64,000 bases of DNA, taken from a virus. Positions within the stretch are counted from its first letter, which is position 1; each line of letters opens with the position of its first letter. The translations under genes were made by a program, and so were the position numbers. Location of the stretch: the IMG/VR virus record IMGVR_UViG_3300046352_000068, positions 4,256 to 68,255 of that record; one strand, given 5' to 3'. This document shows, piece by piece, positions 16,046 to 59,071 of the stretch. The notes beneath the pieces were generated by a model. That model did not search any database. It worked only from the letters and a program-made list of their open reading frames with translations, and was not told where the DNA came from.

Positions 16046-16568
16046 TATGGAAGCACAAATGATATTAGAACATACTGATATGAGATATACGTATGTTAAT
16101 GGTTATGAAAGGCTATATAGATTGTATATTGATGGAGAAATTTGGTCAGTAAGATCTGGTAAGTTTTTAAAACAAGAGCTATCTAAAGGCTATAAAAGAG
16201 TAACATTGTGTATCAATGGTAAAACAAAAAGATATCAGGCACACAGATTAGTGGCTATGCATTTTATATTAAATCCATTGAAAAAACCTTGCGTAAACCA
16301 TAAGGATGGCGATAGAATAAATAACCATATGCGTAACTTAGAATGGTGCACATATAAAGAAAATGAAAATCATTCGTATGACATATTAGGTAAAATAAAT
16401 CATAACAGAAAATTATCTGCCGAAGCCTTAGAAGATATAAGAAGTAATGCTATAAAAGGTGTAAACAAATCAAACAAAGGCAATGTTGATAAATTTGCCA
16501 GTAAATACAATGTTAAATCAGGTACTATATTGAATGTATTAAAAAACAAATTTTATGTTAGAACTTAG
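15987..16568 (+). mobile_element. Free-standing HNH homing endonuclease with a helicase-like 20-aa N-terminal extension
   Basis: HRLVAMHF...VNHKDGDRINNHMRNLEW; in-frame upstream MIQLRDYQKKIV; alternative ATG at 16047. Confidence 0.85.
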
Positions 16569-22951: not shown

Positions 22952-24098
22952 CAAAGCCGAGATTGCCAAAAGAGTTCAAGAGCATTACAACATGCACGAT
23001 CGAAACGTCGAGACTCTTCGCAAAAGAATATCCGCATACATTTTAAAATCAGAGCACCGTGGCCTTGCTGATGAGTGTGAAGCTGCAGGTATATCGCTGG
23101 CAGACACACAACACTATTGGTATAAAGGAAAGCATTACTCTGTTTTTGCAAAGTCAAATGTAAAGACGGAAGACGTTCCTTATGAGAATGTAATTCGTGA
23201 CATCATAGGTTCTTATAATCCATCAAAGATACAATCAATAGCCAAACACAAAATCTCCTCTCCTGTCGCAATTAAGGCTACTGTATCGGATTGCCACGTA
23301 GGATTAGAGCCTAATCCAGGTGGAACTTCTTTATTTGCTTACGAATACAATGAACAGATTTTTAAAGATAATTTATCTAAAGTGTTTAACTCTTTATGTA
23401 AAGAACGAGACGCTAATGGTAAATTTGACTTATTGGTTATTGATGATCTTGGTGATGGCCTTGATGGCTGGAATGGTCAAACCACAAGAGGTGGTCATGG
23501 TTTAGACCAAAATATGAATAATGAAGAGATGTTCCGAGTTTTTGTAGAAGGTAAGCTAAATCTTATTGAAAATTGCATCAAAGAGGGTATTGCTAATGAA
23601 ATTGTAGTTCGAAATGTAGCTAACGATAATCACTCTGGATCATTTGCATCCATTGCAAATATGACTATTCAGATGCTATTAAATAGAACTTACTCGCCTG
23701 ATGATGTGTCATTTTACATATTAAATAAGTTCATGGAGCATTTTGAATACGGAGACCATACATTTATCTTGACTCATGGCAAAGATGCCAAGCATATGTT
23801 TAAGGGTTTGCCTTACAACTTAAATGACAAGGCAGTGTCTTTTATAAATGACTACATAGATCATTATGATATTCGTTCAAAATATATCCACGTAGAGAAA
23901 GGTGACTTGCACCGAGTTGGGTATGATAGAACAAAGAAGTTTGATTACCGAAATTTCATGACATTTGCACCTCCTAGTGCATGGGTTAGCCACAACTTTG
24001 GGGATTGTTATTCAGGTTATTCAATTCAAACGGTGCCTAAATTTAATGGAGAAATTAGTCATACAGATTACTATTTCGACATGAAAAAGAAGATTTAG
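22899..24098 (+). CDS. Calcineurin-like phosphoesterase with N-terminal HTH-like region
   Basis: SDCHVG, LGDGLDG, NDNH, THG, GDLH motifs. Confidence 0.75.
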   Translation: MKPYLEFALELHQQGDLNKAEIAKRVQEHYNMHDRNVETLRKRISAYILKSEHRGLADECEAAGISLADTQHYWYKGKHYSVFAKSNVKTEDVPYENVIRDIIGSYNPSKIQSIAKHKISSPVAIKATVSDCHVGLEPNPGGTSLFAYEYNEQIFKDNLSKVFNSLCKERDANGKFDLLVIDDLGDGLDGWNGQTTRGGHGLDQNMNNEEMFRVFVEGKLNLIENCIKEGIANEIVVRNVANDNHSGSFASIANMTIQMLLNRTYSPDDVSFYILNKFMEHFEYGDHTFILTHGKDAKHMFKGLPYNLNDKAVSFINDYIDHYDIRSKYIHVEKGDLHRVGYDRTKKFDYRNFMTFAPPSAWVSHNFGDCYSGYSIQTVPKFNGEISHTDYYFDMKKKI

Positions 24099-24195
24099 TA
24101 TTTTTGTTGTAATTATAACTGTTGCAGAGTTAAATTATAAAAACATTAGCATTGGAGAGTAAGGCTGCAACCCTGAAATCCAATGCTTTTTTATT
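24099..24195 (+). promoter_or_regulatory. Kissing-loop leader A (promoter, two hairpins, U tract)
   Basis: TATTTTTG box; loop GTTGCAG (24121-24127) is the exact complement of loop CTGCAAC (24165-24171). Confidence 0.75.
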
Positions 24196-24741
24196 ATGGA
24201 AGAAATATTTAAAGACATAGCTGGATACGAAGGCCACTATATGGTGAGTAATTTAGGAAATGTAATTTCATTAAAATACAATAAAGTTCGTAAAATGAAA
24301 TTAAGGTTAGATCAACATGGTTACCCTACGATATGCCTATGGAAAGATGGTAAAAGCACATTTCCTAAAGTACACAGATTGGTATATGAAGCATTTATTG
24401 GTCCGAGAGGAGACAGTATGACTATAAATCATATTGATTATGATAGAGCAAATAATAATGTAAATAATTTAGAGTCAGTCACATATAGGGAAAATTCTTC
24501 ACACAGAGCCTTAAGGGAAAATAAATCATCTAAATATCTTGGCGTGGACTATAAACGAGGCGTATGTAAATGGGTTTCCAGGATAACATTTGAAGGAAAA
24601 AGATATCACTTAGGTATATTTAAAACAGAAATAGAGGCATTTGAAGCTAGAATGAAGTTTGAAAAAGAAAACAATATTATTAATAAATATTTTAGTAATT
24701 TTACAGAAATATATGAAAATGACAGTACAAGAATACGTTAG
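24196..24741 (+). mobile_element. NUMOD4-HNH-AP2-like homing endonuclease
   Basis: EEIFKDIAGYEGHYMVSNLG, HRLV...NHID...NNLE, SKYLGV...YHLG.F. Confidence 0.9.
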
Positions 24742-39388: not shown

Positions 39389-40080
39389 TATTGTTGTTTT
39401 TGATCAGTGTAAGCCTCTTCTGCTCTAGCGGCTGTAACCACATCCATCTCTCTAATACTAACGCCAGCATATTCACAAATTTTAACGACTAACTTAGGGA
39501 AGTCGGATATAGCCAACTCAAAATCTTGGTAGTCATTTGCCGATTGATTGAACAAAGGACTTCCGTTCACCACCGTATAAGTCCACTTCGGATCAGCTGG
39601 GTAACGAACGTAATAGATATTAATGTTATCTGTAATGGTAGCAGGATACACAGCTACCTGAGTCCCTTGCATCACATACGTAGGATACGTTTCTGTGGGT
39701 GCTGTCAGATTGGAATTAAGCAAATAATGTAATTTACCTTGGTCCACATGAGTAACTTCTTTACCATTATAATAGAGTACGTTTAATAAGAAAAAGTTTT
39801 CGGGTAAGTCAAACTTGAAGTTAACTCCGTTGTATACCAAGTCGGTATTCTTGGAGAATGCGTCGATTGTTTGATCTAGCTGCTTTGTAATATCAGAATA
39901 TCCGCTAGTCTCCATACCCTTAAGGTCTGAAATCTTAGCTTTCTGGAAGTCGTAAAAATATTGTTGAAACAACTCAAGCTGAGCTTGCTTAGCAAAGCTA
40001 TTGAACTCTTCTGGCGTAATGAAGCCGTTTCGCTCTTTAGCGACAATGTTGAGAACAGTGTTGTATACCGAATTTACCAT
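39388..40080 (-). CDS. Tail ring/head-tail connector protein
   Basis: VYNTVL...KE..GFITP.EFN..A.QAQ; Y.RYP.DPKW. Confidence 0.7.
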   Translation of the reverse strand: MVNSVYNTVLNIVAKERNGFITPEEFNSFAKQAQLELFQQYFYDFQKAKISDLKGMETSGYSDITKQLDQTIDAFSKNTDLVYNGVNFKFDLPENFFLLNVLYYNGKEVTHVDQGKLHYLLNSNLTAPTETYPTYVMQGTQVAVYPATITDNINIYYVRYPADPKWTYTVVNGSPLFNQSANDYQDFELAISDFPKLVVKICEYAGVSIREMDVVTAARAEEAYTDQKQQ

Positions 40081-40580
40081 TATAAATACTTATTTTGTAT
40101 TTCTTTATGATACAAAAATAAGCATAATTTTTCGTATGCTATTTGTTCATCATTAAAGATGCCTATATACACTTGCTTGCCATCTATATATATTTGCGCC
40201 CTCCATTTATTCCTATCCTTATCCCATGTTATATTGGGATATTTACTAGATTTTTTCTTCATAGAACTCCTGTGCACACAGTTCTCTCTAGTAGAAACCC
40301 ACTCTAGGTTATTTATGTAATTATTTAATTTGTTACCATCTATATGGTTTACGCACATAGAATCATATTTTCCCAAAAAACTTTCAGCAACTATTCTATG
40401 CACTTTTTTGCAAGTTTTTTTATAGTTTACAGTAAATGCGGCAGACAAATAACCATCTTTTGTTATAAATGATTTAAGAGTTTTTCTTCCACTCTTTAGT
40501 ATCCTTCTTAATTTGCCATAATTACTCACTTCGTAGAATGATTCAAATCCAAGAATTGGCACCCATATTTCATTTTCCAT
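40080..40580 (-). mobile_element. NUMOD4-HNH-AP2-like homing endonuclease
   Basis: EIWVPILGFESFYEVSNYG, HRIVA, VNHIDGNKLNN...NLEW. Confidence 0.9.
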
Positions 40581-40690
40581 ATAAAAAAATAAATCCTACA
40601 AAATCCACTGCATCTCACCTCAGCTTCATTTATAGGACTATTTATGTTTTCAGTTACGTAATGTGAGATGGTAACTACAATGCAAAGATA
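40581..40690 (-). promoter_or_regulatory. Kissing-loop leader B
   Basis: TATCTTTG box (40683-40690); loop CATCTCAC complementary to loop GTGAGATG on the transcript. Confidence 0.75.
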
Positions 40691-46493: not shown

Positions 46494-48706
46494 ATCTTGT
46501 TAATTCTACTGAAGGAACCAGTGTTATCGTAAGTTGCAAATTTAATGCTTATTTTTGACTCTTTTTTCTCAGGCAAATATACGTGCTTTTGATTTGCCAT
46601 AATAGCATACCCCGAACTAATTGACGCATCAAATTTAGTTCTATCGTTTACATCGAATCTAGCCCAGTCTTGAAGCGTTTTATTGAACGGCATATCTCCT
46701 ATCTCATCAGGCTGACGATAGTTACCCTCCATGTCTAATCCCACAAAACGCTCGATGTATGTCTCGATTGCTGTGGCGTGTGCCTGCTTAATATCTTCAC
46801 TTGAAGATGGTATACCACCAATCTCTCTTTCTGTGAACGACAATTTATGTGCATGCTTATCAGGACGGTTCATTGAGAAGCCACGATAGCCTCTATTCTT
46901 AAAGTGATACAGTAGACGAGCTTTATTGTTCTCACAAAGAATAGGCATGCCATAGAACACGCAAGCCATCAGTACTTCTTCAAAGAATATTTCTGCTGTC
47001 TGTGGACGAGCAATGTACTCTAGAAAGAATTGGTTGGATGGTGCACCTGTCATATTAAACTTGGTTAACCCGTGGAGCGAACCGTTTGATCCACCAAAGG
47101 TCGCACCTGAGATGTCGTAGGGGTCACAGCCAAACGCACCAATATGCTCATTACCCGGATATCTATTCCCATTTTTAGTAATATAATTATTGTTGATTCC
47201 TGGTCCCGGTATCCAAGATACTAAGAACCGACCATTCTTATCAGGAGTCCAAACAACTTTGGTATCCTTCTCTCCGTTAGCCCAATGAAAGTATCCACGT
47301 GTTACGACGTGGTCTTGTACTAAACTGTCATTGTAGTCTATCTGCTGATAGATTTTAGTCAAGTTAAATAGAGATGACTTAGTCTCATCACGGAAAGCGT
47401 GTGACTCTGTTCTAGGGAACTGACGATAATGCTCATTTAAAGCATCTGGGTCACTCTTAAGTGAGTCGACTTCATTTTGCCAGTTGGTTATAACACCGTT
47501 TGTTATCCATTCGCCTTCTTGTGCTGAAGCAATTGGTTCCGAAGGGTCTTCTAATACTGCGTGACCAAACTCGTCAATATATCCTTCATAGTTTTGGTCC
47601 ATCGGAATAAATAATGAATATAGACCCGACTTAGTTTGACCATTCGCATTTCTTTTTCGCACATCTGAGTCATAATATATCTTTTTATAGTTTTCTCCAC
47701 CTTTATCTAATGCGTTAGATGTTGAGCCCATCATACACTTGCCGATAATCCTAGAACCCAAACGAAGACAAGTCTTTCTTACACGCCACCCATTTAAAAT
47801 ACTTAATGGTTTTTCTAACTTAGCAGCCTCATCTTCAACAAGTAATTTAAGTTTCTGGCCGTCAAATGAGTTGTCAGCTGTATTTTTCCAAGTAATAGTC
47901 GTATCTAATCCATCAATCTCTTCTTCCTCTTCCTTATCCATGTTCTTTCTAGTAATCTTAGAAGAAGGAACCCTAAAGGCAAGTTCTGTTACTGGGGATG
48001 AGTTACCATCACGAGTAGGCATAAAAAAGAATGGGTAGTTATTAATTATGGGAACAACCTTACCCGTAAACATCATTTTAGCATCCGTACCTGTCTTAGA
48101 CATAATACCTAGACTTGAATCGCGAGTTGACGTTGCAATATTAATAACTTCTGACGAAGCCATAAAGGAGAATCCTGAACGACGATTCTTTAGGTAACAC
48201 ATGCCAAAACAACGATTGTCTGCTTTACACGCTTCCCAAAATAAAAAGAATATTCTATTAGCCTCTCGAAAGTCAGGATGCCCTACGTCTGTCTTTGTAA
48301 ATTGAAGATACATGTAGTGAGACCCTGTTATATATGTAGGTACTTTGTTATTAATAAACCAATAACCTAAATCTCTCCTCCTAAACTGCTCCTCAATATA
48401 ATCAATCCATTGTGATTTAAAAGCAGTATCCCGACGAGCCCAATCAAACTGAGTCTTAATTCTTGATAGTTCACGTGGGTATTCTTCAACTATCCACTTA
48501 TTGTGTTTATAATTAATTTTATCAGGAGTAGAAGGAAGAGCGACTCTTAGATTTTGTATGTCGTAAATATTCCCAATAGTCCCATCTTTAGAAACAATAA
48601 CTATATCATATTCTTGGTCATAGCCATATAACCAATCCTTTTTTGCATTACGCTTCTTAAGGATTTTTTCGGGGATAATATTGTCAACTATATGGTATAA
48701 ACTCAT
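46490..48706 (-). CDS. terL: Terminase large subunit
   Basis: KNRRSGFS Walker A, EDEAAK Walker B, GSTSN, nuclease GCDPYD, ENNK, FDASIS. Confidence 0.9.
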   Translation of the reverse strand: MSLYHIVDNIIPEKILKKRNAKKDWLYGYDQEYDIVIVSKDGTIGNIYDIQNLRVALPSTPDKINYKHNKWIVEEYPRELSRIKTQFDWARRDTAFKSQWIDYIEEQFRRRDLGYWFINNKVPTYITGSHYMYLQFTKTDVGHPDFREANRIFFLFWEACKADNRCFGMCYLKNRRSGFSFMASSEVINIATSTRDSSLGIMSKTGTDAKMMFTGKVVPIINNYPFFFMPTRDGNSSPVTELAFRVPSSKITRKNMDKEEEEEIDGLDTTITWKNTADNSFDGQKLKLLVEDEAAKLEKPLSILNGWRVRKTCLRLGSRIIGKCMMGSTSNALDKGGENYKKIYYDSDVRKRNANGQTKSGLYSLFIPMDQNYEGYIDEFGHAVLEDPSEPIASAQEGEWITNGVITNWQNEVDSLKSDPDALNEHYRQFPRTESHAFRDETKSSLFNLTKIYQQIDYNDSLVQDHVVTRGYFHWANGEKDTKVVWTPDKNGRFLVSWIPGPGINNNYITKNGNRYPGNEHIGAFGCDPYDISGATFGGSNGSLHGLTKFNMTGAPSNQFFLEYIARPQTAEIFFEEVLMACVFYGMPILCENNKARLLYHFKNRGYRGFSMNRPDKHAHKLSFTEREIGGIPSSSEDIKQAHATAIETYIERFVGLDMEGNYRQPDEIGDMPFNKTLQDWARFDVNDRTKFDASISSGYAIMANQKHVYLPEKKESKISIKFATYDNTGSFSRINKI

Positions 48707-49230
48707 ATATACTTGTTAATTATATTATGTCCCTTGAAATAATTGCATCTTTTTTTATACGCCTCGTCTTCAGAATTGAATGTGCCTAAATAGATTGTTT
48801 TGTTATTAATCTTTATTCTTGACATCCATTTTTTAGACAACTTATGCCAATAAACACCAACATACTTGCTTGTGCTTTTTGTATTAGAAGCTCTGTGGCA
48901 GTTATTCTCAGCACGAGATACCCATTCTAAATTGGAGATGTGATTGTTATAGATATCCCCATCTATATGATTTACTTCTTCTTTAACATCATTACCAATA
49001 AAAGACATTGCACATAATCTGTGTATTTGAAATTGTCTAGTTTTACCATTTTTAGACAAACCTACTTGTAAATATCCAGATGTATTCTTATTAGGAGATA
49101 ATATTTTTTCTTTCAAATTTAACTTATCATTACCTCTAATAACAATTCTTGCCAAACTTTTAATTTTAGAGTAATTGCTTACTTCATAAAATCCCTCGTA
49201 TCCTATAACCGGTTTCCAAATCTCTTCCAT
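48703..49230 (-). mobile_element. NUMOD4-HNH-AP2-like homing endonuclease directly upstream of terL
   Basis: EEIWKPVIGYEGFYEVSN, HRL...VNHIDG...NN...NLEW, SKYVGVYW. Confidence 0.9.
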
Positions 49231-50597: not shown

Positions 50598-51101
50598 ATG
50601 CACAATAATAATATTAAAATGGAAAAATTAATAGAAGCATATCCAAATTATACAATCGACTTACAAGGTATTGTTACAAACATCAATACAAAGCACAAAA
50701 TCAAACAAACTGTCAAACAGGGTAGGCTTATGGTTGAATTGTGGAAAGATAACAAAAAGAAACACCAACTTGTTCATAGATTAATCGCTCAAGCATTTAT
50801 CCCTAATACTTATAATAAGCCGCAGATAAATCATATAGATGGCAATCCTTTAAATAATAATATTGAGAACCTAGAATGGGTTACAGATAGCGAGAATAAA
50901 TATCACGCACATAGAACGGGTCTTATAAATTGCAGAAAAACACCTGTTATACAATATACTAAGGAAGGTGAATTTATTGCTGAACATAGGTCTGTATTAG
51001 ATGCTTATAAAGCAACCAAAGTAGACAGAAAGAGTATTCATTTTAATATTAAAAATATTTACAACCACGCTGGTGGATTTGTATGGAAGGAGAAAAAGTA
51101 A
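50598..51101 (+). mobile_element. HNH homing endonuclease with NUMOD1-like C-terminus
   Basis: HRLIAQAFIPN...INHIDGN.LNN...NLEWVT; PVIQY...AGGFVW. Confidence 0.9.
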
Positions 51102-54399: not shown

Positions 54400-57300
54400 T
54401 TAGTTTAGTTTTGCTTCTAGTTCTTTTACCTTTTGCTCCAAAAATTGCACCTTAGCAACTAAAACCTCACGATAAGAAAGACTTAATAATCCATCAGTTC
54501 CTTTGCTTACTGCACTTGGTAGTATTCCTTGTACATCTTGTGCAAAATATCCAAGTTCCTCTATACCATTCTTAGTGTACAACTTAGCTACAACAGATTC
54601 AATGCCTTTTGTTTGATAGTTATCTTCAATTAAAGTCTTGATGGTAGCATCTGATGTTTCAAAATATGCTACTCCATAATAATTTCCATTATCAATATAT
54701 GCCTGTCTTAATAATACACCCGGTTGTTTTTTGTAAAAATTAAATATTCCACCATATTCATAGAATGACATTTGGTCTCCTGCTGTAACACTATAATCTC
54801 CTGCTGCTGCAGGTATCCCTCGCAAAATTAATCCGTGATACATATCGCCTGCTCCTGCAATGTTTGCATACGCATTACCTTGATTTAACATTATTGTAGG
54901 AACTGAAGTTGCTGCAGCAGGCGTAAATCTACCCCATCCATTTACATCTAATTTCCAACCACTATCCGTAGTGGTGCCTATTAGGAAGTTACCACTATTA
55001 AAATATGAAGCCCCATTAGCAGTTATATATATAGTGTTTGATTGAGCTTCATTGTATAAATATAATTGTGCAGGGTCAGCAGCTCCTCCCGGATTAAAGA
55101 ACAACCTATTTTCGTTGCCATCACCATTAGTTGTCTTAACCTTAAATTGTCCGTGAACAGCTAATACAGCATCAGGCGCCGTCGTTCCGATGCCTACGTT
55201 GCCAGAGGATGTAAAAGTCAATATATCACTTGATGTACTAAAGTTTCTAATACTACCATAAGCAGCTCCACTTGGTGTAAATAAAGAATAATATCTTACA
55301 TTCCCATCGCCAAAAATTATATTATGCGCCCCTCCATTTTGAGCAAATAATACACCGGTTGAAACCGCATCAATAGCCCTACCACCACTATTATTAAATA
55401 TATTGTTTCCGTTAGTAGTAACACTACTCGAAAACGTGGCTGCGCCTGTTGTTCCTAATGTTAATGACAATGTCCCATCATTAACATAAAAATAATGCCC
55501 TAACCCTAATTCTGCTGCATAAGCCATATTTCTGTCTGTGTTTCCTAACGCAGAACCTCTAACGCTTATAAATCCACTTGTTACACCATTTTGTCTGATT
55601 GACAAAATTCCACCACCTGTTGTTCCTGTATTGTCTGCAATAAAAATTCCATTGTATGCTGCACTCCCTTTTGATGTTACTCCATTTATAAACCTTCCTG
55701 TACCATTAACATCTAGCTTGTAGCCTGCGTTAGTAATTGTACTGCTTGTTATGAGCACATTGCCATCCGAAAAAATACGCATTTTTTCACTAATAGCAAA
55801 AGATGAATTTGTAGCCGCAGTAAAAAATCTTATAACATTATCATTAGCAGCATTTGCAGAACCTGATGCAGATATAATTAATCCATCTCCACCTGTACCA
55901 ATAGCCATTTCACTAGTATTGCTAGTAGAGTGTAAAACTATTCCCGGTACTGTTGCACCCCCAATATCTAATATTTTATTAATTCCAACTGAAGATTGAC
56001 TTGGTGTAACTCCTAATCCTAAATTGCCTGAAGGATTTATGATAAGCCTTGAAGTTAAATCACCTCCATTTGCTCTTGTTACAAAACTTAATCCATAGCC
56101 ATAATCACCATCAGTTCCATTTGCTTTAAATGAACTTATACCTGCTGCATCAACAAGTGTTGTGCCTGTATAAACTCCTCTAAATAATATACCACCACCA
56201 TTACCTGCTGCTACTGCTGAATTGTCTGCAATACTTATATTATATCTTGCAGCATTATTTGTTGCAGCAGTACTTATAAAACTTGCACTTGTTCCACTCA
56301 ATGCTCTACTAATTAAAGTAACAGTTGTTCCATCATCAGTAATAGCACTATTCCCTATTGTACTTGCACCTGTAAACTTAGGTAGGTAGTTGGTTGTTCC
56401 TGACCCTGTAATCTGACCAACTGGAGTTGTTCCTGATGATCCTGAGGTGCCATTAACACCTGACGTGCCTGATGTACCGTTAACTCCACTAGTACCATTA
56501 ACACCTGAAGTTCCGTTGATGCCTGATGTTCCAGATACACCTGACGTACCGCTTGCTCCTGAGCTACCACTAGTTCCGCTAACTCCTGATGTGCCACTGC
56601 TACCGCTTACCCCACTTGTACCATCTACTCCTGACGTTCCACTCACGCCTGACGTACCACTAACTCCGCTAGTACCATCAATACCTGATGTACCTGCAGT
56701 TCCAGATGTTCCATCTATCCCACTTGTACCAGCTGTACCTGATGATCCGCTTGAACCAGATGTACCTGATGTACCACTAACACCACTCGTCCCTGATGCG
56801 GCAGCAATTGATGTAGTAACATATGAGTACTCACTATCTTCTGTGTACCACTCTGCAGTTTTTGCAGTGCTTACATTATTGTTATAGTAAATCTTAACAA
56901 TCATTCTGTCAGTTGCAGAGATTGTCGTGTGTGGAAAAACAAAGTCTACGGTAGTCTCTGCAATAACACCTATTCCAAACCAAGCCAAAAGAACTACAGA
57001 CGAAGTAGCTAATGTCCCGTAAGGTGTGCCTGTTGAGTCAGCAAGTTGTAATGTTACATAAACTTGTATATTGTCATTATCCTGAGGCTTTAATGTATGT
57101 AGATGAAATCTTTGTACGCCTGATGGGATAATAGTAAATCCTAATTGCTCTGTTATAAATTGTTGAACCAACACATTTTGTTGGTTACCAGCCATATTAA
57201 CAGTTATTGTCTGTAATCCTGCAAATGTGGGTTCAGTAGATAATACTTTATATGGAGAAATAGAAGAAGATTGACTATTATTAAAATAGTAAACACGGCC

Positions 57301-58392
57301 ACCACTAACACCATCAACCCCTGAAGTACCTCCTGTACCCGATGTGCCTGTTGTACCTGAGGTTCCTGCAGTACCACTAGTACCTGTAGTTCCTGATGTG
57401 CCACCTGTACCGTCAGTGCCTGATGTAGCTGACGTGCCCGATGTACCATTGGTTCCACTAGTGCCATCAATTCCTGATGTACCGTTTATCCCTGATGTGC
57501 CATCAATACCGCTTGTCCCACTGCTTCCTGACATACCTGATGTACCAGCAGAACCATTAGTTCCACTTGTACCACCTGTGCCATCTGTTCCTGAGCTACC
57601 ACTAGTCCCATCTATACCATCAATACCTGACGTACCTGATGTACCACGTGTTCCTGATGTTCCTCCTGTGCCATCAGTTCCTGAAGAACCCGATGTACCT
57701 GAGCTTCCTGATGTACCAGTAGTGCCTGAAGATCCTGATGTACCTGATGTTCCATCTATTGCTGAAGTTCCGCTAGTACCTGTTGTCCCTGATGACCCAC
57801 TTGTTCCATCTGTACCACTAGTACCTGATGAGCCAGAACTTCCGCTTGAACCAGACGTACCTGTAGTACCTGATGTACCTGACTCTCCTGAGAATAAGCC
57901 AAAAGTAACAGACTCATCTTCATTTATGATACCTGAATTACCTTGTAAGAATGTTAAGTCTAAGAAATAGTAATCACCGGTATGAACAACAGCATCAACT
58001 CTATATAATGCATATTCACTAGGGAATCCTGGACGATTAACAAGTAAGATTCTATTTAACCAAACTTCTTCAATAAATACGCCTGGCTCTGTATTAGCAA
58101 GGGTTAAGAAAGAAACCTTGATAGTTCCTGCAAGAGCGATAACATCTACTGTATCAAATGGATGGCCAACTAATTCGAATGTCTTTGCAGGCTGAGATTC
58201 TGTCGGGGCATACATTCTGTATGTCCAGTTAAAGTTACCTGTATCAATAATACCTACCCGATTGAAATAATCGGCAATATCATTGGTAGTGAAATTCTTA
58301 GTTGTCTTGTATTCTGTGTTCCAGTCTGAACCGATAACTCTATCAAGTCCTGTAACATAGGTATCAATGCTGTAAGTGCTAATCCGGGCCAA
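54400..58392 (-). CDS. Tail fibre with (G-T-S)n tracts and C-terminal S74-type intramolecular chaperone
   Basis: TTG start MARISTY; G-X-Y repeats; GNVGIGT-type fibre repeats; TSDATIK...GYFAQDV...coiled coil. Confidence 0.85.
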   Translation of the reverse strand: MARISTYSIDTYVTGLDRVIGSDWNTEYKTTKNFTTNDIADYFNRVGIIDTGNFNWTYRMYAPTESQPAKTFELVGHPFDTVDVIALAGTIKVSFLTLANTEPGVFIEEVWLNRILLVNRPGFPSEYALYRVDAVVHTGDYYFLDLTFLQGNSGIINEDESVTFGLFSGESGTSGTTGTSGSSGSSGSSGTSGTDGTSGSSGTTGTSGTSAIDGTSGTSGSSGTTGTSGSSGTSGSSGTDGTGGTSGTRGTSGTSGIDGIDGTSGSSGTDGTGGTSGTNGSAGTSGMSGSSGTSGIDGTSGINGTSGIDGTSGTNGTSGTSATSGTDGTGGTSGTTGTSGTAGTSGTTGTSGTGGTSGVDGVSGGRVYYFNNSQSSSISPYKVLSTEPTFAGLQTITVNMAGNQQNVLVQQFITEQLGFTIIPSGVQRFHLHTLKPQDNDNIQVYVTLQLADSTGTPYGTLATSSVVLLAWFGIGVIAETTVDFVFPHTTISATDRMIVKIYYNNNVSTAKTAEWYTEDSEYSYVTTSIAAASGTSGVSGTSGTSGSSGSSGTAGTSGIDGTSGTAGTSGIDGTSGVSGTSGVSGTSGVDGTSGVSGSSGTSGVSGTSGSSGASGTSGVSGTSGINGTSGVNGTSGVNGTSGTSGVNGTSGSSGTTPVGQITGSGTTNYLPKFTGASTIGNSAITDDGTTVTLISRALSGTSASFISTAATNNAARYNISIADNSAVAAGNGGGILFRGVYTGTTLVDAAGISSFKANGTDGDYGYGLSFVTRANGGDLTSRLIINPSGNLGLGVTPSQSSVGINKILDIGGATVPGIVLHSTSNTSEMAIGTGGDGLIISASGSANAANDNVIRFFTAATNSSFAISEKMRIFSDGNVLITSSTITNAGYKLDVNGTGRFINGVTSKGSAAYNGIFIADNTGTTGGGILSIRQNGVTSGFISVRGSALGNTDRNMAYAAELGLGHYFYVNDGTLSLTLGTTGAATFSSSVTTNGNNIFNNSGGRAIDAVSTGVLFAQNGGAHNIIFGDGNVRYYSLFTPSGAAYGSIRNFSTSSDILTFTSSGNVGIGTTAPDAVLAVHGQFKVKTTNGDGNENRLFFNPGGAADPAQLYLYNEAQSNTIYITANGASYFNSGNFLIGTTTDSGWKLDVNGWGRFTPAAATSVPTIMLNQGNAYANIAGAGDMYHGLILRGIPAAAGDYSVTAGDQMSFYEYGGIFNFYKKQPGVLLRQAYIDNGNYYGVAYFETSDATIKTLIEDNYQTKGIESVVAKLYTKNGIEELGYFAQDVQGILPSAVSKGTDGLLSLSYREVLVAKVQFLEQKVKELEAKLN
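56425..56797 (-). repeat. Gly-X-Y (GTS/GVS/GVN) coding repeat, block 2
   Basis: Same periodicity as block 1. Confidence 0.9.
57300..57889 (-). repeat. Gly-X-Y (mostly GTS/GSS/GID) coding repeat, block 1
   Basis: Gly every third residue, Ser/Thr dominated; 9-nt periodicity. Confidence 0.9.
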
Positions 58393-58429: not shown

Positions 58430-58960
58430 TTATAGATACTTATTGACTATGCCATTATCTCTTTCATATTTGCACCTAGCAGCATAAGCATCTTCTTCGG
58501 TTAAGAAATGGCCAATTGTTTTTTGTTTTTGATTAATACATATTGAAGCCGTAAATCTTTGCTTTGCTTTTATCCAACTAACACCCGTGTATTTGCTTGT
58601 TGTTTTGGTTTTATCAAATCGGTGGCAATTATTTTCTTGCATTGATACCCATTCTAAATTAGAATAATGGTTGTTTAATCTATTACCATCTAAATGGTTT
58701 ACAAAGTCACGACCTTCTTCTCTCGGTATAAATGCTTCAGCAACTAATCTATGAATAGAGTACTTAATTGGTTTTCCTCCATTTCTTAGTGAAATTCTAG
58801 TGTAACCAACATTACTAATAAAAGGAGTTAGCTCCTTTCCTGTTATAGGATATATAGATCCATCAGATCTCTTATATTTTCTATCCAATGATTTAACTTT
58901 TCCACTTTCGCTAACTATAAAGTGTCCTTCATAGCCAACAACATCTTTCCAATCTTCCAT
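58430..58960 (-). mobile_element. NUMOD4-HNH-AP2-like homing endonuclease
   Basis: EDWKDVVGYEG, HRLVAEAFIP, VNHLDGNRLNN..SNLEW, SKYTGVSW; ATG at 58960. Confidence 0.9.
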
Positions 58961-59071
58961 ATAAAAACAAAACCCCAACGTGTAGGACCGTCGGGGTTGT
59001 TTAGTTTTTCAACTATTTAAAACGAATATTAGGTCCTACACTAACACTCGCTTTATTACATCACAAATATA
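58961..59071 (-). promoter_or_regulatory. Kissing-loop leader C
   Basis: TATATTTG box (59064-59071); two 10-bp stems with loops TGTAGGAC and GTCCTACA. Confidence 0.8.

Follow-up and report, generated by a model that had tools for sequence, protein, structure and literature searches.

What does an RNA leader do when its two hairpin loops are exact complements of each other, and why does such a leader recur in front of mobile genes within one phage genome? The question is raised by IMG/VR virus record IMGVR_UViG_3300046352_000068 (68,255 bp, rated complete), of which bases 4256-68255 make up the window, that is, the whole 64,000-nucleotide (nt) stretch analysed here; positions are window coordinates unless marked as genome positions. 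An earlier note, made from the sequence alone, had described a shared leader layout before three NUMOD4-HNH endonuclease genes (starting at 24196 on the plus strand and at 40580 and 58960 on the minus strand), with loop 1 in each carrying the exact reverse complement of loop 2. Sequence reading together with RNAfold confirmed both the layout, which runs in the order TAnnTTTG box, hairpin 1, A-rich linker, hairpin 2, U tract and ATG, and the complementarity, which extends over 7, 8 and 8 nt in copies A, B and C, respectively. In this phage genome, the layout with its loop complementarity is far beyond chance, and it is a selected RNA structure, strand-specific, with a covarying loop-loop contact.

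Leader anatomy and evidence for a selected RNA structure

The three downstream genes score for NUMOD4 and HNH_3 in Pfam and are ~39% identical to one another. Each leader begins with a TAnnTTTG box, the -7 promoter element of Bacteroidota, whose G lies at -5 in F. johnsoniae according to PMC6847099; from this geometry (TAnnTTTG, start ~5 nt after the G) a Bacteroidota sigma-A promoter is predicted. The earlier note had listed three leaders, all of them before HNH genes; our own hairpin-pair scan revealed a fourth, copy D, just outside the window and in front of a gene that is not of the HNH type. The parts of the leaders and the three HNH genes are as follows.

24099-24106, plus strand: promoter box TATTTTTG of copy A (Bacteroidota -7 box, sequence reading)
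24107-24140, plus strand: hairpin 1 of copy A, 13 bp with one bulge (RNAfold minimum-free-energy structure equal to the centroid; own scan)
24121-24127, plus strand: loop 1 of copy A, GTTGCAG
24141-24147, plus strand: A-rich linker of copy A, AAACATT (RNAfold)
24148-24187, plus strand: hairpin 2 of copy A, 9-bp base AGCATTGGA/TCCAATGCT, internal loop GAGUA/GAAA (AGUA/GAA type), 3-bp apical stem AGG/CCT (RNAfold, own scan)
24165-24171, plus strand: loop 2 of copy A, CTGCAAC, complement of loop 1
24188-24195, plus strand: U tract of copy A, TTTTTTAT T, abutting hairpin 2 and running into the ATG at 24196
24196-24741, plus strand: HNH gene A, 181 aa, NUMOD4 and HNH_3
40581-40690, minus strand: copy B leader, box at 40690-40683
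40677-40651, minus strand: hairpin 1 of copy B, loop 1 code CATCTCAC at 40670-40663
40650-40637, minus strand: linker of copy B
40636-40595, minus strand: hairpin 2 of copy B, UGAA/GGAU tandem G.A internal loop, loop 2 code GTGAGATG at 40618-40611
40594-40581, minus strand: U tract of copy B, ATG at 40580
40080-40580, minus strand: HNH gene B, 166 aa, NUMOD4, HNH_3 and a weak AP2
58961-59071, minus strand: copy C leader, own TATATTTG box at 59071-59064
59055-59018, minus strand: hairpin 1 of copy C, loop 1 TGTAGGAC at 59040-59033, three G.U pairs
59017-59002, minus strand: linker of copy C, with a mini-hairpin
59001-58966, minus strand: hairpin 2 of copy C, no internal loop, loop 2 GTCCTACA at 58988-58981
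To 58961, minus strand: U tract of copy C, ATG at 58960
58430-58960, minus strand: HNH gene C, 176 aa from the ATG at 58960, NUMOD4, HNH_3 and a weak AP2
Genome 3995-3894, minus strand: copy D, the fourth leader, 260 bases before the window

Copy D shares its box with the other three copies; its loops are AGTAGTGG and TCCACTAC, which form 7 bp, and a U tract and an ATG follow. The stem of 11 bp with one bulge that had been assigned to hairpin 1 of copy A is the inner part of a longer hairpin: the bulge and the 11 bp stand, and the full hairpin measures 13 bp. The linker is 7 nt long in copy A, where, like a terminator's A tract, it is able to pair with the U tract, and it is longest in copy C (16-22 nt), whose fold has z = -4.97 (0/200 shuffles). 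A symmetric non-Watson-Crick internal loop of the tandem G.A, AGUA/GAA or UU/UU type is present in most hairpins 2, at 2-4 bp below loop 2; the loop-E-like internal loop pointed out earlier in copy A finds support in the recurrence of AGUA/GAA in two other leaders (those of the complete relative G002 and of locus L410). The -7 box is placed 0-7 nt (5 nt allowed) before hairpin 1 in all 18 leaders that folded, out of 20 tried. In copies A-D the ATG lies 8-14 nt past hairpin 2, within the unpaired U tract and with no Shine-Dalgarno site, and a T4-type hairpin that sequesters the ribosome-binding site was rejected for them on these grounds.

A U-rich tract followed by TAT(T)ATG occurs at exactly four places in the 68-kb genome, which are copies A-D, and all four have two hairpins with a loop complementarity of 7-8 nt. 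In a blind fold test, the 150 nt upstream of HNH genes were folded with complementarity ignored, and 221 dereplicated loci gave 124 adjacent hairpin pairs; a loop-loop run of at least 6 nt was present in 15 of these pairs and one of at least 7 nt in 10, compared with 0.31% and 0.05%, respectively, when loops were paired across different loci (15,158 comparisons). Our own scan found 6 matches in the first 80 HNH loci versus 0-3 (mean 1.4) in ten dinucleotide shuffles. Finally, complementarity was present in 7/7 hairpin pairs that had been defined only by promoter box and U tail, two of them judged by eye because part of the loop is masked in the unconstrained fold.

With the loops held open, the sense strand folds more stably in 20 of 21 curated leaders, by a mean of 6.6 kcal/mol, and the same leaders contain 53 G.U pairs in the sense orientation versus 14 in the antisense one. 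This strand-specific stability indicates that the element is RNA. A signal at the DNA level (a cruciform, a recombination or homing site), or else a chance by-product of insertion, might be suspected from the position of the element exactly at the cassette borders described below; the preference for the sense strand in both stability and G.U pairs, the compensatory changes that preserve RNA pairing and the presence of the same leader with different genes, at different sites, already make this explanation scarcely credible.

Across the family, leaders were sought with a descriptor scan of our own, as MAFFT does not align leaders with unrelated stems. For eight B-type leaders, RNAalifold predicted both hairpins, with double changes in 13 of 22 pairs; 97.2% of cells are paired in the structure given here versus 31-44% with slid partners, and 11 pairs are double-changed versus 3.9 in shuffles, 0/500 of which reach the observed value. 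Fifteen leaders that have B-type loops on wholly different stems pair in 87.7% of cells and show double changes in 15 of 17 stem pairs. The loop-loop helix itself covaries between lineages, with compensatory changes from CATCTCAC/GTGAGATG to CTTCTCAC/GTGAGAAG (L233) or CATCCTAC/GTAGGATG (L012), from GTTGCAG/CTGCAAC to GTCGCAG/CTGCGAC (L319) and from GGTCAAG/CTTGACC to GGTCGAG/CTCGACC (L410). The selection on RNA structure that had been suspected is therefore borne out by RNAalifold and pair counts in both stems as well as by the more stable sense strand, and homologous leaders do have complementary loops, with compensatory changes between related codes.

Distribution, insertion sites and downstream genes

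HNH-anchored searches of viral, metagenome and genome collections yielded 80, 159 and 80 usable loci, and the full layout was present in 3, 15 and 3 of these, respectively (21/319), representing about 15 distinct leaders; about 18 different loop codes were counted. Two further leaders lie in complete relatives: that of G005 precedes a NUMOD4-HNH gene after groEL, and that of G002, which has the loop code of copy D on different stems, precedes a different endonuclease (PHROG endonuclease VII; weak Pfam HNH, E = 0.004, below the cut-off). L008 and L196 have the A-type pair the other way round, each sequence lying in the opposite loop, and at L019, L428 and L429 the layout occurs in hosts using sigma-70-type promoters and Shine-Dalgarno sites. 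Scan matches without the layout were discarded (L049; L260, L267, L305, L321, L330; L404; L086, L132/L133, L160; G002:13364, G004:20304; and several in-gene matches). In cultured phages (Cellulophaga phi19:1, Manatee Spring podovirus), the HNH homologues directly adjoin the gene before them and lack a leader, and no cultured model came to light.

The genome under study has six HNH_3 genes, compared with 0-2 in five complete relatives, so the earlier account of HNH genes with leaders holds for the three genes named and not for the other three, which lack the two-hairpin layout. Two of the latter, at 16047-16568 (plus) and 48703-49230 (minus), start one base past the upstream stop codon, which suggests translational coupling; the third, at 50619-51101 (plus), has its own box and a short palindromic, different leader.

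A simpler class of leader was seen in contigs that use Shine-Dalgarno sites, where loop 1 pairs with a loop 2 containing the site (L054, L083, L389); L281 and L299 likewise have an upstream loop complementary to a loop or segment that bears it, with CCCTTAT/ATAAGGG and CTCCAAT/ATTGGAG as examples. In this class, the loop-loop pairing looks like a device that masks translation.

Leader and gene are one inserted cassette, because the insertion sites are empty in related phages; in A and B the cassette lies at the start site of a promoter that is resident there, and C comes with a promoter of its own. For the B site, we surveyed 80 loci with the virion gene downstream of HNH B, 74 of which hold both flanking genes. 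The site is empty in 58 of the 74 (a gap of 49-103 nt, no HNH), ten distant relatives have gaps of 419-810 nt without an HNH match, and six contain an HNH gene, in all six with a B-type leader; a seventh locus with an HNH gene, L093, is truncated by the end of its contig. Eight empty gaps that were read consist of a stop codon, a canonical terminator, a TATCTTTG box, five bases and the ATG. In L135 and L145 the resident terminator and box are intact and the insert begins directly after the resident box; the resident terminator is absent in this window and in three other filled loci. Within the last ~50 nt of the HNH B open reading frame (40080-40130, minus) lies a TATTTTTG box able to serve the downstream virion gene (ATG 40080), and this box is kept in all filled sites shown. 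The HNH-free L132 retains a remnant of the HNH B 3' segment in its 103-nt gap, which resembles a scar left when HNH was lost; L133 and L137 have gaps of the same length. At empty B sites (L097, L103, L129, L141 and others) 5 nt separate TATCTTTG from the virion-gene ATG, and given the published G-at-minus-5 geometry the virion messenger RNA would be leaderless or nearly so.

The A site is empty in the complete relatives G002, G004 and G005, in which the stop codon overlaps the same TATTTTTG box and the ATG comes 15 nt further on. Cassette A has thus inserted at a resident promoter's start site, and the copy A box is, as judged from this comparison, a putative resident promoter that belongs to the DUF5856 gene downstream and is used by the cassette; the 3' end of HNH gene A overlaps the start of that gene (ATG 24713 or 24719). 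The C site is also empty in complete relatives; cassette C has a box of its own, and the promoter-like sequence resident at the tail-fibre gene is now found downstream of HNH C. A tail-fibre-like protein of 1330 aa with collagen triple-helix repeats is encoded at 54400-58392 (minus; Pfam Collagen, E = 4e-37). The spot of copy D is occupied in the close relative G001 by a different gene with a plain 4-nt leader. Presence at the A, B and C sites is sporadic between the same flanks, as befits free-standing homing endonucleases.

The leader is not restricted to such nucleases. When IMG/VR was scanned with an exact pattern of both B-type loops, a procedure that selects for paired letters so that only the contrast with the stems is informative, 17 contigs were returned, 17/17 with the full layout. 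The downstream genes are NUMOD4-HNH genes of several lineages in nine of these contigs; in the other eight they encode a Lin1244_N replication-initiation protein, a DnaD-like helicase loader or small unknown open reading frames. An HNH gene 85% identical to HNH C stands behind a B-type leader, and leaders and genes have therefore been shuffled. The occurrence of B-type loops on entirely different stems before replication genes shows that the element is not HNH-specific and that its loops evolve more slowly than its stems: in 15 leaders of the B lineage the loops are constant, including the unpaired residues AUUA (loop 1) and AG (loop 2), while all stems change. Different loop codes might prevent cross-talk between cassettes, as the earlier note suggested; inside any one lineage it is the loops that vary least. 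In the B lineage, loop 2 has the sequence GAGGUGA, which resembles a Shine-Dalgarno site, although sites of that kind are not used by the host group.

The gene behind copy D (genome 3408-3896, minus; 162 aa) is followed by the phage GroEL gene (genome 1863-3404, minus; PHROG 5725, E = 7e-124). The AlphaFold 2 (AF2) model of its protein has two winged-helix-like domains (predicted local distance difference test, pLDDT, 84), with weak matches in the PDB, none of them at E <= 0.001. The protein belongs to no Pfam or PHROG family, Atlas gave no lead, and its five homologues (own cluster plus four) have no assigned name; the gene is not recognisable as a nuclease. The earlier proposal that the RNA is a specific partner of the HNH nuclease fails on three counts: the winged-helix gene behind copy D, the eight of 17 B-type leaders before non-HNH genes and the three HNH genes without a leader.

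The variety of downstream genes and loop codes also bears on the idea that the leader is bound by a protein or by RNA polymerase, with the kissing fold and the conserved loop residues as the recognition surface. It would then be an autoregulation operator or a put/nut-like antitermination site, and binding would decide read-through of the terminator. The invariant unpaired loop residues fit this idea, as do the tandem G.A or AGUA/GAA internal loops, which recur among the leaders and are of types that proteins commonly bind, and the promoter-proximal position just before the terminator, which resembles that of nut and put sites. About 18 unrelated loop codes on one architecture speak against a single sequence-specific binder, however, and downstream proteins as unrelated as HNH, winged-helix and DnaD-like ones speak against autoregulation by the product, such that we consider a binding site of this kind decidedly unlikely.

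Terminator anatomy and a possible attenuator

The earlier remark that hairpin 2 and the U tract resemble a terminator agrees with the anatomy of every copy. In all curated leaders hairpin 2 is followed directly by at least 5 U in 8-9 nt and has the A-rich linker upstream, its base is G+C-rich (often CCC...GGG), and the U tract abuts it whatever the distance to the ATG (8-31 nt here; elsewhere the ATG is up to 68 nt after loop 2). Hairpin 2 thus has the sequence hallmarks of an intrinsic terminator, namely a G+C-rich stem-loop and an immediate U tract. In the cases read, the stretch from hairpin 2 to the start codon contains no promoter box, and the gene would therefore depend on read-through. 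Of 24 RNA runs, all available as assembled contigs, four were compared with the sequence; one contig, from run X4, bridges 23923-24502, covering the upstream gene, leader A and the HNH gene; being an assembled contig, it shows presence only.

Based on this anatomy, we propose, giving the proposal an even chance, that the element is a portable promoter-proximal attenuator of ~80-100 nt, in which a terminator is clamped or tuned by the upstream hairpin. Following the published promoter geometry, transcription would start at the TAnnTTTG promoter, 0-7 nt before hairpin 1, and the RNA would proceed via the A-rich tract into hairpin 2 and then the U tract, an arrangement typical of an intrinsic terminator with A and U tracts. 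With the start codon past the U tract, all transcription into the gene would read through this terminator. Loop 1 would pair with loop 2 over 7-9 Watson-Crick bp, and the internal loop of hairpin 2 is probably a hinge for this within-molecule contact: by simple helix arithmetic, hairpin 1, the loop-loop helix and the apical stem could stack, the lower stem folding back at the hinge. With such stacking, linkers of 7-15 nt would suffice, and copy C, which is hingeless, has the longest linker. The kissing contact may lock or tune the terminator fold independently of upstream sequence, and a gene behind a strong resident promoter may then be expressed only from the read-through fraction; low expression of this kind would suit dosage-sensitive DNA-binding proteins such as homing nucleases and replication initiators. 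The promoter at the 3' end of the cassette would restore expression of the displaced resident gene, and a small RNA with a hairpin at each end would arise as a by-product. What we infer is that termination takes place, that the kissing contact plays this role and that expression is low.

Several points weigh against the attenuator. A plain terminator is enough for attenuation, and the conserved kissing contact is left unexplained by the model alone. Because the stems of hairpins 2 in A and B are interrupted, a simple scan for terminators passed over both. The within-molecule contact of copy A would need a sharp bend at the internal loop, since the loops are fully paired 7-mers and the linker is 7 nt, and copy C is without a hinge, though its linker is 16-22 nt. 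In the B lineage, the unpaired AUUA and AG are conserved while every stem changes, which hints at sequence-specific recognition by a protein or another RNA.

Loops of this kind could also meet between molecules rather than within one. The leader would then be a stand-alone small-RNA gene acting in trans, the loop 1/loop 2 complementarity joining two copies 'hand in hand', and a finished leader would bind a nascent one, so that RNA level or genome copy number alters termination or translation in an antisense-like manner without an antisense gene. The architecture is that of a typical terminator-ended small RNA, the loops are more conserved than the stems, and fully paired loops of 7-8 nt with short linkers would fit a reciprocal dimer more easily; moreover, the replication initiators found downstream are of the class controlled by kissing antisense RNAs in plasmids. 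Yet leader and gene form one transcription unit, as no promoter lies between them in the cases read, the hinge in hairpin 2, or the long linker where the hinge is missing, fits a within-molecule contact, and no third copy of any loop code is nearby. A search for a third partner of four loop codes found occurrences in the genome at chance level, none of them near a cassette. We therefore regard a trans-acting RNA as unlikely. The same contacts could make the leader a self-complementary 'sense-sense' dosage sensor: terminated leader RNAs would accumulate in proportion to promoter activity and genome copy number and bind nascent leaders via reciprocal loop 1-loop 2 contacts, raising termination or blocking initiation. 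This strikes us as quite improbable; if true, homing nucleases and replication initiators would have copy-number-compensated expression without an antisense gene or protein.

The position of hairpin 1, which begins 0-7 nt from the predicted start site as 5' stabilisers do, could alternatively mark an element for RNA processing or stability, whether through stacked helices cut by RNase III, a small self-cleaving RNA or protection of the 5' end. The stacked helices would reach about 15-25 bp, and the conserved internal-loop purines would be in keeping with such a role. Against it stand the lack of an Rfam ribozyme match at E <= 1 and of an invariant core common to all codes, and it leaves the U tract tied to hairpin 2 unexplained; we hold it to be very improbable.

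If the attenuator proposal is true, mobile genes carry their own 'insulator', which allows them to land directly behind strong promoters at no lethal cost to the phage. It is unusual for a terminator to have its apical loop held by a hairpin upstream, and the design is compact (80-100 nt); the many orthogonal loop codes would be ready-made parts for tunable, context-independent attenuation, and the natural compensatory variants make the loop-loop contact directly testable.

Host, novelty and relation to known systems

The host is likely a member of Bacteroidota, because the nearest deposited relatives of the virion protein are in phages of Flavobacterium, Cellulophaga and Maribacter (49-65% identity); this would make it a phage of the Flavobacteriia type, with which the TAnnTTTG boxes are consistent. 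According to PMC6847099, this host group uses no Shine-Dalgarno sites. GenBank phage DNA contained neither a near-identical nor a distant match to a 20-kb stretch or to two leaders. A transfer RNA (tRNA) gene lies before the window (genome 1323-1394, minus; Rfam RF00005, 33.5 bits), and ARAGORN detected no tRNA inside it.

The earlier note did not recognise the leader as a named RNA family, and in Rfam 15 we found no window match at gathering score or at E <= 1; none fell on any leader in the 16 + 10 leader-bearing loci, and the only matches there, at other positions or in different loci, were to tRNA, group I introns and int-alpA. In L042 and L029, the group I introns are located downstream of HNH genes. 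An RNA of the type III toxin-antitoxin kind (ToxI-like) was rejected, as the leaders have no tandem repeats and the downstream proteins are HNH, winged-helix or DnaD-like. We found no description of such a leader in a literature search that did not cover the catalogue motif lists of PMC10690425 and PMC5737381, which may include it. The leader appears to be an undescribed RNA family. It would belong with the cis-regulatory leaders or attenuators of phage mobile genes, and its kissing contact, which is well supported, is unusual. If true, this adds a class of structured RNA to the poorly known gene regulation of Bacteroidota phages, whose hosts lack Shine-Dalgarno-based control.

A parallel in position is int-alpA RNA (Rfam RF02996), which is likewise a structured RNA directly upstream of phage NUMOD4-HNH genes; its sequence and fold are different, and no leader described here matches RF02996. 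We observed int-alpA RNA before other phage HNH genes, at L042 (1415-1480) and L073 (1408-1478) above the gathering score (41.6 and 47.3 bits) and at L085 (1412-1474) below it (29 bits).

The pRNA of phi29 is likewise a phage RNA with two mutually complementary loops, which covary from phage to phage as the primary sequence drifts. That RNA uses a 4-nt intermolecular pairing to form a ring on the portal, is encoded by one gene per genome and is in Rfam, whereas the leaders described here have a helix of 7-9 bp, several copies per genome before unrelated genes, a built-in terminator and no Rfam match.

Kissing-RNA attenuators such as the rep leaders of pT181 and pIP501, the P4 CI RNA and the P1/P7 C4 RNA are similar in that a promoter-proximal leader has a terminator before a replication or regulatory gene, loop pairing decides the outcome and the codes give specificity. 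Their partner is a separate antisense or processed RNA; here, in contrast, both partners are in the same sense transcript, an antisense gene having been sought only by reading the sequences. Morons and promoter-stem-loop (PeSL) cassettes of phages are also accessory genes that travel with a short module of promoter and stem-loop, but these modules are not known to have a loop-loop tertiary contact and their terminator stands after the gene, not before it.

The cassettes as a whole resemble, in their arrangement, the homing endonuclease genes of T4 (mobE, segB, I-TevI), in which, according to PMC2988022, a nuclease lies between resident genes with a throttling hairpin or terminator at its 5' side and a promoter after it for the displaced gene; the same paper describes a terminator plus downstream promoter for mobE and RNA hairpins that limit translation of T4 homing endonucleases. 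In T4 these are single hairpins hiding the Shine-Dalgarno site, or a terminator inside the open reading frame, whereas here two hairpins and a conserved loop-loop helix lie upstream of the reading frame. Unlike in T4, the leader described here also serves genes that do not encode nucleases, in a host group that, according to PMC6847099, is without Shine-Dalgarno sites.

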